A DNA stretch of 15,255 nucleotides, from the IMG/VR virus record IMGVR_UViG_2541047698_000010; one strand, written 5' to 3'. Position numbers and translations under genes: made by a program. Origin of the DNA: a virus. Its lineage: Duplodnaviria > Heunggongvirae > Uroviricota > Caudoviricetes. Below the pieces are notes generated by a model that worked only from the letters and a program-made list of their open reading frames with translations, did no database searches and had not been told where the DNA came from. Below, one piece after another: positions 3,966-7,067 of this stretch (position 1 is the stretch's first letter; the number at the start of each line of letters is the position of its first letter).

Positions 3966-4014
3966 TTTGCTGCTCCTCATCATATCGACCCTGCAAGGTC
4001 GGTTGGTTTCTCCA

Positions 4015-4101
4015 CAAAACAGAGAAGAACACCTGCGGTGGCAGCCGCCCGGATGGATTGGGTTATGAGCCCGTCGTCCGGTGATGCTCTTCTCTGTTTT
4101 G
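4015..4101. repeat. Perfect inverted repeat: 14-bp arms (4015-4028 / 4088-4101) around a 59-nt GC-rich loop
   Basis: CAAAACAGAGAAGA at 4015-4028 is the exact reverse complement of 4088-4101. An inner CACC/GGTG pair (4030-4033 / 4080-4083) extends the stem. Confidence 0.7.
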
Positions 4102-4102
4102 C

Positions 4103-4148
4103 AAAAAAGGACGGTACCAGCCGGAAGCAAGGGTACAAACTGGTACCG
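4103..4148 (-). terminator. Candidate intrinsic terminator on the leftward transcript (tL-like), about 140 nt upstream of yfdP
   Basis: 9-bp perfect stem CGGTACCAG (4112-4120) / CTGGTACCG (4140-4148) with a 19-nt loop. On the minus strand it is followed by UCCUUUUUUGC (plus A-run 4103-4108). Confidence 0.5.
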
Positions 4149-4149
4149 C

Positions 4150-4367
4150 CAGGACTACACACAGCATAAAGTTGTGGTGCCGGGTGCCTCCCGGTGCCTG
4201 GCGAAGGTTGCACACCAGGCGGGTGGGTATCCACAGAAGGTCGACTGTCAGCCTCAACCTTAACCCGCGTGCGCTGAGCCGCATTCACCACAACGCTAAG
4301 GATTCTCTCTGGTTGAAAATACTTAGCTGTTATGTGCCTGCTTTTAGCCACATCAGGCGAGGTGGAC
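4150..4367. other. GC-rich, highly structured non-coding block (candidate cis-acting RNA element or ncRNA)
   Basis: GC content clearly above the flanks. Several nested inverted repeats (GCCTGG/CCAGGC at about 4197-4220; AAGGTTG/CAACCTT at 4204-4210 / 4255-4261; GTGG/CCAC at 4223-4234). The ORFs here are Arg/Pro/Gly-rich with no Shine-Dalgarno. Confidence 0.35.
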
Positions 4368-4435
4368 CTGGTTATTCCCCAACAACAAGGATTCGGTTAA
4401 TCTGGATATCCCCAACAACAATAAGAGTATTCAAT
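4368..4435 (+). repeat. Two tandem 34-bp direct repeats (core CTGG-TAT-CCCCAACAACAA) abutting the start of the plus-strand gene
   Basis: 4368-4401 ctggttattccccaacaacaaggattcggttaat and 4402-4435 ctggatatccccaacaacaataagagtattcaat share a 12-nt identical core. Confidence 0.65.
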
Positions 4436-4459
4436 GTGATCGCTGAATTAACGGCAGCA

Positions 4460-4951
4460 ATGACGGCTATTCGTGAAACAGCCCAGATTGCAAAACTAAT
4501 GAACGAGGCAAAAACTCAAGCTGAAGTAAATGCGGCTATTGGTGAGCTGAACTCAAAGCTTGCGTCTATTCAGCGCGAATGCGTGTCTCTCGTTGAACTG
4601 GTGGGCTCTTATCAAGAAATAAATGCTTCTCTCAAAGCTAAAATTGCAGAATTCGAAAACTTTGAGGCTCAGACGGAAGGCTATATCCTTAACCAACTTG
4701 AGTCGGGTACTTTTGTATACTCGAAGGAGGTAATCGTGAACGGTGGCAGCATAACCATGCATCTTTGCCCAAAATGTTTTGGACAAAAGATAGTATCGAT
4801 ACTTCAACCATTCCCGGTTAGCGAAGATGAGCTTTTTCATAAAAGCAGGTGCCTCCACTGTGAAAATAAGTTTCTGATGAATAAAAATCCGGATTACGTA
4901 TCGCCTCCATCCATTGAGGAGTTGTCCAGAAAACTTAACGGCAATCTGTAG
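4460..4951 (+). CDS. Hypothetical coiled-coil / C4 zinc-ribbon protein (about 163 aa), convergent with cI and antisense to the pL operon
   Basis: N-terminal 75 aa are Ala/Glu/Lys/Leu-rich with heptad-like periodicity. C-terminus has CPKC-x24-CLHC. Own plus-strand terminator follows. Alternative GTG start at 4436. The ORF-track extension back to 4172 is GC-rich junk. Confidence 0.6.
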   Translation: MTAIRETAQIAKLMNEAKTQAEVNAAIGELNSKLASIQRECVSLVELVGSYQEINASLKAKIAEFENFEAQTEGYILNQLESGTFVYSKEVIVNGGSITMHLCPKCFGQKIVSILQPFPVSEDELFHKSRCLHCENKFLMNKNPDYVSPPSIEELSRKLNGNL

Positions 4952-4976
4952 ATTGCTACTGTTGTGGATATCCAGA

Positions 4977-4988
4977 TTGTTAAAGAGC
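4977..4988 (-). promoter_or_regulatory. boxA-like antitermination element (GCUCUUUAACAA) on the pL transcript
   Basis: Minus-strand sequence GCTCTTTAACAA is a 12/12 match to the rrn boxA core, about 100 nt downstream of the predicted pL start. A 6-bp hairpin (4941-4956) lies 20 nt further 3'. Confidence 0.4.
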
Positions 4989-4990
4989 TA

Positions 4991-5014
4991 AGCGTCCTGT
5001 AGGGCGCTTTTTTG
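4991..5014 (+). terminator. Intrinsic terminator of the plus-strand zinc-ribbon gene
   Basis: Stem AGCGTCC (4991-4997) / GGGCGCT (5002-5008) with one G-U pair, loop TGTA, followed by TTTTTTG. Confidence 0.6.
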
Positions 5015-5081
5015 TTGCTAATGAATCATCCTAGACTTCATATGCTCCAGGCGGCTACTTCGTGGGCGTCCTGCCTGTTTG

Positions 5082-5126
5082 TTGTTTCTCCTGGGTACAT
5101 TATGTATCCCAAAAGTACATTGTCAA
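5082..5126 (-). promoter_or_regulatory. Candidate pL promoter with OL operators
   Basis: Minus strand reads TTGACA (plus 5121-5126), a 16-17 nt spacer, then CATAAT (plus 5098-5104). Operator-type palindrome ATGTA-N9-TACAT at 5102-5120 and a degenerate copy TTGTT-N9-TACAT at 5082-5100, same geometry as the OR sites. Confidence 0.5.
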
Positions 5127-5130
5127 GTAT

Positions 5131-5153
5131 AAAAAAACCTGCCGAAGCAGGTT
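5131..5153 (-). terminator. Intrinsic terminator downstream of the repressor gene
   Basis: Stem ACCTGC (5137-5142) / GCAGGT (5147-5152), loop CGAA, followed on the minus strand by a 7-U tract (plus A-run 5131-5137). It lies 13 nt past the cI stop. Confidence 0.6.
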
Positions 5154-5165
5154 CATAAACATTGA

Positions 5166-5840
5166 TTAGGCTTTGATTTTGTATCTTCTTGGTTTTCCTG
5201 AGAAAATCACAGTTCCAATTATAGAGCAATTACCGTTGATCTTAATGTAAGGCTCAGGCCAGTTTGGGTTTAACGCTTTGAGATAACGCTGTGTCCCATC
5301 TTCTATCAACCTTTTGAAGGTGGTTTCACCTGTATCGTGCATCAATGCAATAACGTCGTCACCGTGGCAGGCAGGTACTTCAGGATCGACAAAAATCATG
5401 TCTCCCGGGCGGTACTCATCAATCATTGAATCACCTATCACCCGCAAGATATAAGTCATTTCCCCACAGGGTACAGGGCAGGGATACGTTTCTGCTGTGC
5501 TCAAATCAACCTCAGAATATCCAACTTCTTTCCATGCTCCGGCCTGTACCCATGATATGACAGGGACTAATGTGATTTGTTTATTAGTGATTGAAACATC
5601 AGGTTTTTTTGTGATGTTCGTTGTCTGGTGTTCTTGATCGAGCCATCCGACAGGCAGGTCGAAACATTTTTCGATGTGTCGTGCCATGCTGTCACCGATA
5701 TTTTTAGTAGCACCATCTCCCATAAACCTGCTGGTCTGGGTTGGCTCGCGATCAATCATAGTGGCAAAGGAAGAATTCCCGCCAACACCATCTCTCAGTT
5801 TTCTGGCGTTAGACCGCCGGATGTCATGGATTGTTTTCAT
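5166..5840 (-). CDS. cI: cI-like prophage repressor (N-terminal HTH, C-terminal S24 LexA-type autopeptidase domain)
   Basis: 224 aa. C-terminal region has the S24 serine (..VIGDSM..) and a downstream lysine (..TFKRL..). Divergent from the cro-like gene, with palindromic operators between them. Confidence 0.9.
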   Translation of the reverse strand: MKTIHDIRRSNARKLRDGVGGNSSFATMIDREPTQTSRFMGDGATKNIGDSMARHIEKCFDLPVGWLDQEHQTTNITKKPDVSITNKQITLVPVISWVQAGAWKEVGYSEVDLSTAETYPCPVPCGEMTYILRVIGDSMIDEYRPGDMIFVDPEVPACHGDDVIALMHDTGETTFKRLIEDGTQRYLKALNPNWPEPYIKINGNCSIIGTVIFSGKPRRYKIKA

Positions 5841-5846
5841 AACGAA

Positions 5847-5925
5847 ATTAAAACCCTTGTACCGTTAAGGTACAAGTATCTTGAAGGTTCATTTCAATCA
5901 TGTAATATGTATACCGGAGGTACAT
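5847..5925. promoter_or_regulatory. Divergent pRM / pR promoters with OR operators
   Basis: OR1 TTGTA-N9-TACAA at 5857-5875 (perfect palindrome CTTGTACCGTTAAGGTACAAG). OR2 ATGTA-N9-TACAT at 5907-5925. pR is TTGAAG (5881-5886), 16 nt spacer, TAATAT (5903-5908). Candidate pRM on the minus strand (TTGTAC / TTTAAT) would start at or next to the cI ATG. Confidence 0.55.
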
Positions 5926-5930
5926 ATTGT

Positions 5931-6131
5931 ATGAAAGCGTATTGGGACTCTTTAACCAAAGAACAGCAGGGCGAGTTGGCCGGAAAAGTTGGCTCAACAC
6001 CTGGCTACTTACGGCTGGTTTTCAATGGCTATAAAAAAGCCAGTTTTGTGCTGGCTAAAAAACTTGAGCAATGCACGTCAGGTGCAATTACGAAATCTGA
6101 CTTAAGACCGGATATCTATCCGAAAGATTAG
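5931..6131 (+). CDS. cro: Cro-like HTH regulator (66 aa)
   Basis: ATG at 5931 with a GGAGG Shine-Dalgarno 10 nt upstream. Small basic protein, first gene of the rightward operon. The ORF-track start at 5628 is an upstream extension across the operator region. Confidence 0.8.
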   Translation: MKAYWDSLTKEQQGELAGKVGSTPGYLRLVFNGYKKASFVLAKKLEQCTSGAITKSDLRPDIYPKD

Positions 6132-6162
6132 CAGAACACTTTCAATTTTTAACCACAGAACG

Positions 6163-6732
6163 ATGAGGCTAATCGTGGGTAAGCATCACTGGAAAATAGA
6201 AAAACAGCCTGAGTGGTACGTGAAAGCTGTCAGAAAAACTATCGCGGCGTTGCCGAGTGGTTACGCTGAAGCGGCTGACTGGCTCGATGTAACAGAAAAC
6301 GCTTTATTCAACCGCCTTCGTGCAGATGGCGATCAGATTTTCCCGCTGGGATGGGCAATGGTTTTACAGCGTGCTGGTGGCACTCATTTCATTGCTGATG
6401 CTGTGGCGCAGTCTGCAAATGGCGTCTTTGTGTCTCTTCCTGACGTCGAGGATGTGGACAACGCCGATATTAACCAGCGTCTGCTGGAAGTCATTGAACA
6501 GATCGGCAGTTATTCAAAACAGATTCGTTCAGCAATCGAAGACGGTGTAGTGGAACCGCATGAGAAGACAGCAATTAACGACGAGCTGTATCTCTCAATT
6601 TCGAAGCTGCAGGAGCATGCAGCACTTGTCTACAAAATTTTTTGCATTTCAGAAAGTAATGACGCCCGCGAGTGTGCAGCTCCGGGCGTCGTGGCGTCGA
6701 TTGCTTCTGGTTGTGGAGAAACTAACGCATGA
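6163..6732 (+). CDS. CII-like / YdaT-family regulatory protein (tentative)
   Basis: 189-aa ORF directly after cro, in the position of cII. Family assignment is from memory of YdaT/CP76-type proteins and is not confirmed. A GTG at 6175 is an alternative start. Confidence 0.45.
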
Positions 6733-7067
6733 ACAGTTTAACAACACACTACCGTCGCTCGCAACTGATTGCGCTTCCTGTACCGGGTGGAAAAGCGAAG
6801 GTGGAATATTGCTATGCAGTGAATGTACCAGGTGACAGGGAAATTGTAACCCACAGCTTTGCAGAGTGGGCTGTGGGGGATTTCAACCGGCAGAAGGAGA
6901 CAGTCCTTTGCGACAAGTTAACCGCTGGTTCAAAGATCACTACGGAGTGCCCGTCAGAGTCATTCGTTGGGAACCGGAAACACAACGGGTTATCTACCTC
7001 CGCGAAGGCTATGAGCATGAGTGCTTCAGTCCGCTCGAACAGTTTCGTCGTAAATTCAGGGAAATAG
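6729..7067 (+). CDS. Hypothetical protein (112 aa); frame uncertain in its 3' half
   Basis: ATGA start-stop overlap with the upstream gene. Its TAG stop lies inside the GAGG Shine-Dalgarno of the O-like gene. An overlapping frame (6866-7087) encodes a more globular-looking peptide. Confidence 0.35.

Follow-up and report, generated by a model that had tools for sequence, protein, structure and literature searches.

A predicted pL promoter with predicted tandem operators in the immunity region of an e14/SfV-type lambdoid prophage

Which promoter starts the leftward transcript of this prophage, and what would keep it silent? We analyzed a stretch of 15,255 bp, hereafter called the window. A preliminary description of it had read positions 5082–5126 as the leftward promoter pL, with operators of the same geometry as those found between the repressor gene and cro. 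We agree with that reading and put its probability at roughly 85%: these positions would be pL and OL of a lambdoid prophage of e14/SfV immunity, bound by the adjacent CI-type repressor.

The gene order of the window runs from the integrase through yfdT/yfdQ/yfdP-type early-left genes (all on the minus strand) to the cI-type repressor, cro, a CII-like activator and replication genes. In immunity type, the window groups with the E. coli K-12 element e14 and Shigella phage SfV; the type also occurs in Stx2c and cdt phages. The cI–cro DNA is 95–97% identical to that of the Shigella serotype-converting phages SfIV and SfV. Escherichia phage PhiR49_1, which is inducible, is 99.9% identical to positions 4000–7000, and over 11 kb (∼11,000 positions) only three positions differ (1025, 5091, and 5114). 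The same immunity region was found in 1664 of 5426 complete E. coli genomes (∼30%), where the gene is annotated as ymfK, "LexA family protein".

We retrieved relatives without any conditioning on the operators by scanning IMG/VR with the 21-nt terminator stem only. Including the window and phage loci fetched earlier, 76 loci carry the e14/SfV immunity region; the rest of the matches are unrelated uses of the terminator.

The promoter, the repressor, and the proposed left operators

The elements around pL, together with the two best palindromes of the OR region, are as follows.

5166–5840, minus strand: gene of the cI-type repressor, 224 aa (PF00717, phrog_4, phrog_12107, identity to YmfK)
5128–5154, minus strand: intrinsic terminator of the repressor gene, T-run included (terminator scan, 5154–5135; annotated in the SfV and Ayreon records)
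5121–5126, minus strand: pL −35 hexamer TTGACA (promoter scan; a sole exception among 40 unique 60-nt variants of related loci)
5099–5104, minus strand: pL −10 hexamer CATAAT, 16-nt spacer (promoter scan; kept in related loci)
5090–5093, minus strand: predicted pL start, A5092 or G5091, 7–8 nt past the −10 (from hexamer spacing alone)
5102–5120, no strand: OL1, ATGTATC-CCAAA-AGTACAT (exact TGTA-N9-TACA; arms near invariant, centre free)
5082–5100, no strand: OL2, TTGTTTC-TCCTG-GGTACAT (two mismatches to TGTACC-N5-GGTACA)
5857–5875, no strand: OR-left, TTGTACC-GTTAA-GGTACAA, a perfect palindrome (exact motif; invariant arms, 12 different centre pentamers)
5907–5925, no strand: OR-right, ATGTATA-CCGGA-GGTACAT (exact and refined motif; conserved in relatives)

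In the promoter scan, TTGACA-16-CATAAT scored 11/12 against the sigma-70 consensus and was the best promoter-like site within 4000–7000. A near-consensus promoter with these hexamers on the minus strand had been proposed with a spacer of 16–17 nt; the hexamers and the strand hold, and the spacer is 16 nt, not 17. The promoter lies 40 nt beyond the cI stop codon on the cI strand and points away from the immunity region, and the T-run of the repressor-gene terminator stops 1 nt short of its −35. One GenBank record, that of Ayreon, annotates a promoter at the homologous place.

The adjacent repressor is identical over all 224 residues to YmfK/CohE of the K-12 cryptic prophage e14, and combines a DNA-binding N-terminal domain with an autopeptidase of the LexA/CI S24 type. 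Its C-terminal 130 residues match Peptidase_S24 (PF00717, E 1.5e-26) and the C-terminal domain of lambda CI (E 2e-9), and the autopeptidase residues Ala100-Gly101, Ser138, and Lys176 are present. A Pfam search of the N-terminal domain matched no HTH family; its identification rests on PHROG profiles (phrog_12107, a phage-repressor profile, over the N-terminal 75 residues) and weak PDB matches (5d50, E 6e-4; 7nkv, E 0.05). In K-12 strain BW25113, cohE was scored essential in the Keio collection (PMC5992433).

The two OL palindromes overlap pL. OL1, where ATGTA-N9-TACAT can be read directly across the spacer as the preliminary description had it, fills that spacer: its first base comes right after the −35 and its last 3 nt reach into the −10, with the centre at about −19. 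OL2 takes in the final 2 bp of the −10 and reaches about +11, over the predicted start, with its centre at +2. The OL centres, at 5111 and 5091, are separated by 20 bp.

How specific is this motif to the immunity region? The exact form TGTA-N9-TACA occurs three times in the 15,255-bp window (5103–5119, 5858–5874, and 5908–5924) against 0.12 expected, and 0 of 200 shuffles reach three. A motif scan of the whole prophage had been suggested as a check; within the window, the exact motif is confined to pL (one copy) and the region between cI and cro (two copies). The degenerate copy over the start site, TGTT-N9-TACA at 5083–5099 within OL2, needed other support, because matches to TGTA-N9-TACA with at most one mismatch are at the chance level in the window (five versus 4.4 expected) and the copy alone is not significant. 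The refined motif TGTACC-N5-GGTACA supplied that support: with at most two mismatches it has five matches in the window versus 0.35 expected, 0 of 200 shuffles reach five, and four of the five are OL2, OL1, OR-left, and OR-right. These four sites are of one sequence family and overlap promoters. The predicted operator specificity is better given as the 19-bp ATGTAyC-N5-GGTACAT, in which 7-bp arms enclose 5 bp that vary freely; TGTA-N9-TACA, as first put forward, had the half-sites and the geometry right and was under-specified.

The fifth match to the refined motif, TTTCCCCACAGGGTACA, lies at 5459–5475 inside the repressor gene. It has two mismatches; its right arm fits the motif well and its left arm poorly. 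As the sole such match outside OL and OR, it is probably a chance match.

Two of the three differences between the window and PhiR49_1 lie in OL. At 5114, the first base of the right arm of OL1, the window has A where all 42 other unique OL variants have G. At 5091, which is the middle base of OL2 and lies at about +2 of pL, it has C instead of T. By our calculation, three random substitutions would place two or more in these 39 bp with a probability of ∼4e-5, and none of the complete E. coli genomes matches the 131-bp stretch above 98.5%. The two substitutions may reflect selection on the operator or the promoter, and the A5114 copy of OL1 may bind the repressor less well.

We propose that sigma-70 RNA polymerase would recognize TTGACA-16-CATAAT on the minus strand, begin its transcript near 5092, and move leftwards away from the repressor gene. 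Because the OL centres are about two helical turns apart, two repressor dimers could sit side by side on the same face of the DNA, and dimers on OL1 and OL2 would exclude polymerase from pL.

The leader RNA and the left operon

What does pL transcribe? The transcript would begin almost at once with a structured RNA.

5012–5089, minus strand: structured leader RNA "Y" of the pL transcript (covariance-model match, 79.5 bits; covariation in 60 diverse sequences)

This leader starts ∼4 nt after the predicted pL start and is 65–78 nt long. It has an invariant 21-nt core, GGCAGGACGCCCACGAAGUAG (the complement of 5055–5075), flanked by two helices rich in compensatory changes, an outer one of 6 bp and a hairpin of 5 bp. 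Over the three helices in the 60 diverse sequences, 95.4% of cells pair, versus 73.9% in shuffles and 22–43% in slid controls, and ten pairs show compensatory changes; the outer helix of the window's own copy has two mismatches. More than 30 immunity types share the leader: well over 100 lambdoid phages and prophages that lack N carry it, in Escherichia, Shigella, Salmonella, Yersinia, Klebsiella, and other hosts, and in each it directly follows a strong promoter. A search of Rfam matched no family. The covariance model gave exactly one copy per locus and no second, pR-side copy in 33 sources.

The window holds no N-like ORF, and we found no lambda-type N/nutL system at pL; N is likewise absent according to the SfIV paper (PMC3851460). 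Use of put-like RNAs by N-less lambdoid phages is so far only guessed at by specialists (PMC12315714). A tentative idea, to which we give well under even odds, is that the leader may be a new class of cis-acting, put-like processive antiterminator and the two OL substitutions selected changes in operon control. If so, it would account for the read-through of left-operon terminators in these phages, which have no N protein.

The arrangement resembles pL-putL of HK022, where N is absent and a structured RNA lies within a few nt of the pL start (PMC9378689). It differs from HK022 in that the leaders share no sequence similarity and the leader described here occurs once per locus, with no pR copy. 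We rejected homology to HK022 putL on these grounds: there was no similarity by eye, no covariance-model match in HK022, and no copy at pR. HK639 was absent from the BLAST matches.

One feature counts against an operon promoter at pL. A gene on the plus strand (4223–4951) converges on it ∼140 nt downstream, so productive leftward transcription needs to read through ∼0.8 kb of antisense sequence. This gene codes for 242 aa and matches phrog_1244 but nothing in Pfam, NCBIfam, or PADLOC. Its appearance is that of an inserted moron that brings a terminator along, the hairpin 5009–4990 read on the plus strand; at the same place SfV has orf33 and e14 has ymfJ.

On the minus strand, the hairpin is directly followed by an exact rrn-type boxA, GCTCTTTAACAA (4988–4977), an rrn-like order. 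The hairpin–boxA module is present in 29 of 146 leader-bearing loci with differing sequence beyond it; SfV and e14 lack it. A possible role is to shield transcription from pL against Rho over the ∼0.8 kb of untranslated antisense sequence. A boxA-like sequence inside cro, ACTCTTTAACCA (5947–5958), has two mismatches and was set aside; the number of such matches is within chance.

Between pL and the early-left genes lies, besides the convergent gene, a terminator-bearing, sRNA-like element. This STnc100-like RNA (4324–4101, minus strand) scores 40.3 bits in Rfam (E 1.3e-6), under the gathering score of 47, and ends in a hairpin and a U-run. It is located inside the pL operon, upstream of the yfdP-like gene, and SfV has an annotated rho-independent terminator at the homologous spot. 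We considered whether this RNA pairs with the leader, as in P4 immunity, and rejected the idea: RNAduplex gave only a long, loop-ridden duplex, and no convincing complementarity was seen by eye.

Could pL be real and yet yield mainly a short, stand-alone RNA, consisting of the ∼80-nt structured element and the hairpin 5009–4990, instead of serving an operon? The covarying RNA only ∼4 nt past the predicted start fits this idea, as does a hairpin in the window ∼100 nt downstream with the convergent gene behind it. We nevertheless regard it as improbable. In its minus-strand reading, the hairpin contains a C-A mismatch and lacks a U-run; it was called as a terminator for the plus strand only. In e14 and SfV, the leader runs straight into ymfJ or orf33 with no hairpin. 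Every gene from 3983 to the integrase (1–1164) is on the minus strand, and no other promoter was identified for them. Moreover, left-operon genes of K-12 are co-expressed with the right operon: intE, xisE, ymfH, and ymfJ share one expression module with ymfT–ymfN, sulA, and recN, most active in oxidative or DNA-damaging conditions (PMC12132413, PMC10602906). We keep the reading of pL as the probable promoter of the left operon.

The OR region and comparison with known switches

The OR region adds the following elements to OR-left and OR-right.

5874–5892, no strand: probable OR-mid, AAGTATC-TTGAA-GGTTCAT (three-mismatch match; over the pR −35)
5881–5908, plus strand: pR, TTGAAG (5881–5886), 16 nt, TAATAT (5903–5908) (read from the sequence; TTG and −10 conserved)
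5847–5875, minus strand: putative pRM, TTGTAC (5875→5870), 17 nt, TTTAAT (5852→5847) (ATTAAA kept in 38 unique OR variants)
5931–6131, plus strand: cro-type gene, homologue of YmfT/CroE, 66 aa (phrog_35; weak YdaS/HTH_3 matches; annotation)

The promoter scan did not list pR, whose score is under the 9/12 threshold. OR-right extends from the last 2 bp of the pR −10 through the start site, with the Shine-Dalgarno sequence of cro in its centre, and is placed on pR exactly as OL2 is on pL: both share their first two bases with the end of the −10. The centre of OR-left falls at −26 with respect to pRM and at −49 with respect to pR.

OR-mid abuts OR-left at a centre-to-centre distance of 17 bp, and its own centre falls at −43 of pRM, the position of OR2 in lambda. 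As a three-mismatch match to the motif, it is not significant alone. In 38 unique OR variants, divergent ones included, its GGTTCAT is invariant and its AAGTAyC near invariant; the conservation of GGTTCAT is notable because it lies in the pR spacer, a stretch whose sequence does not matter to promoter function. OR thus probably has a third, degenerate site at 5874–5892. The geometry that the preliminary description had ascribed to two OR sites is exact in both (5858–5874 and 5908–5924); it is the count of two that should probably become three.

By analogy with K-12, the repressor mRNA of the window appears to be leaderless, starting at the A of the ATG (5840). This reading of pRM fits the mapped transcription start of ymfK in K-12, where the leader length is 0 (PMC4681348).

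With the promoters assigned in this way, we infer that OR-left at −26 occupies a repressing position on the repressor promoter. The best palindrome of the switch spans the −35 and the spacer of pRM, so strong negative autoregulation is implied. Repressor on OR-right, and probably on OR-mid, would block pR, and on OR-left it would hold down transcription from its own leaderless promoter. Once DNA is damaged, the S24 domain would cleave itself under stimulation by RecA, releasing pL and pR together. From the DNA, we thus predict repressor binding and its cooperativity, a ranking of the sites by affinity, where pL starts, and induction by the SOS response.

How does this switch compare with known ones? 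By the promoter, operator, repressor, and immunity-type features tested in silico, the locus is an ordinary lambdoid pL/OL, and conceptually it adds nothing to the lambda paradigm. As in lambda, cI is followed on its own strand by a strong sigma-70 promoter directed away from the gene, the operators are tandem palindromes of the OR family, the repressor joins an N-terminal DNA-binding domain to an S24 domain, and the repressor mRNA is leaderless. The differences from lambda are in the layout. There are two OL sites here and three in lambda; the sites are 19 bp long (7-5-7) with OL centres 20 bp apart, whereas lambda has 17-bp sites 23–24 bp apart. No rexAB separates cI from pL, and the cI terminator abuts the −35. 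N and nutL are missing, and a different conserved RNA is found in the leader. The OR spacings are 17 and 33 bp, and the best palindrome is on the repressor's own promoter, where lambda has its weakest.

The nearest system is e14 (ymfK/cohE–ymfT/croE), which has the identical repressor, the same pL/OL and OR bar a few bases, and the same leader upstream of ymfJ. It differs from the window in carrying the consensus G in the right arm of OL1 and T at the OL2 centre, and e14 is defective whereas the window is near-identical to inducible PhiR49_1. SfV and SfIV have the same operator arms with a different OL1 centre. The Stx phage 933W reportedly has three OR sites and two OL sites (Koudelka and co-workers). 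The operator count would be alike if OR-mid is real; the operator sequences and the repressor are unrelated.

The GenBank record of SfV marks a "putative operator region" at OR only and leaves pL and OL unannotated. In the literature on YmfK/CohE that we covered, we found no defined operators and, for the e14/SfV immunity type, no footprint, EMSA, ChIP, or mapped pL start; OL and pL of this type have possibly been described in earlier literature. For YmfK/CohE, a transcription factor of E. coli K-12, the present analysis offers a predicted DNA motif together with the promoters it would target. Knowledge of the operators could serve to predict superinfection immunity and cross-repression among these prophages and to design reporters and induction experiments.

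Operator conservation and exchange among related phages

We then compared the operators across the related loci. In 43 unique 75-nt variants, OL1 reads ATGTAyC-N5-GGTACAT with almost invariant arms around some 20 central pentamers. OL2 reads xTGTTyC-N5-G(G/A)TACAT, with a variable centre and a conserved right arm. Its left arm is kept weak (TGTT, never TGTA), even in the Stx2c/Ayreon group, where the downstream sequence is unrelated. Part of the conservation of OL2 could stem from the −10 hexamer and the transcript leader. At OR, the arms of TTGTACC-N5-GGTACAA are invariant around 12 centres, and ATGTAyA-nnGGA-GGTACAT is also conserved. Such fixed arms around a freely varying centre would be expected of a site for a dimeric helix-turn-helix protein. 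Among the loci there are 12 different N-terminal sequences of the repressor, all of which contain REPTQxSR, and the arms stay unchanged across them.

Are other immunity types built the same way? The 50 nt immediately downstream of pL are common to many phages of other immunity types. ST64B and YeP1 have a good promoter at the same distance upstream of this shared segment. Their palindromes (TTGCG..GCAA in ST64B, ATGTCAGATATCCTACAT-like in YeP1) are of a different family and recur in their own cI–cro regions. In SfII the promoter is ∼70 nt further upstream, and its own palindromes at pL recur at its own OR. The operators are thus specific to the immunity type, since ST64B, SfII, and YeP1 differ at the same place.

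We also scanned IMG/VR with the shared leader core and took upstream promoters scoring at least 9.5. The −10 ends 14–36 nt before the leader core in 79 of the 80 unique upstream sequences with such a score, and these comprise more than 30 different combinations of hexamers and operators; in the shuffled control, 15 of 113 reach 9.5 anywhere. From this fixed distance to a common leader, we conclude that the promoter/operator block acts as part of an exchangeable immunity cassette. Because the block sits at a fixed point before the common leader, 5099–5126 has strong positional support as the pL promoter.

Taken together, the position, orientation, and quality of the promoter, an operator family common to pL and the cI–cro region, and conservation in the 76 related loci uphold the original assignment of pL. 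Heteroimmune phages agree with it, each having a promoter and operators of its own at the homologous position.

Which protein binds the palindromes? Another protein might be their main ligand: the Cro-type YmfT, the CII-like activator, or a host factor such as LexA or TyrR. Lambdoid Cro proteins use the same operators as CI, so by analogy YmfT very likely binds them too; such sharing does not exclude CI. LexA and TyrR boxes also contain TGTA...TACA, as TGTA-N6-TACA and TGTA-N10-TACA, respectively. We rejected both, as the spacing is strictly N9 in every relative. The sites travel with the repressor gene, and heteroimmune phages swap in other palindromes at the same position. We consider it very unlikely that these sites serve mainly a protein other than CI.

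That the promoter and the palindromes arose by chance in an AT-rich intergenic stretch and have no regulatory role is hardly credible: promoter-like matches are indeed not enriched within 4000–7000 (three versus 4.1 expected from shuffles), but the motif counts far exceed expectation in both the exact and the refined form, dozens of variants conserve the arms over the centre, and heteroimmune phages have their counterparts at the homologous position. The palindromes at 5082–5120 are thus best read as operators of the CI-type repressor.

One related locus shows a rearrangement of OL. In L030 (IMG/VR UViG_2531839374_000010), a 20-bp tandem duplication, GGTACATTGTGTGTCCATGG, yields three OL sites at 20-bp intervals and turns the pL −10 into CACAAT.
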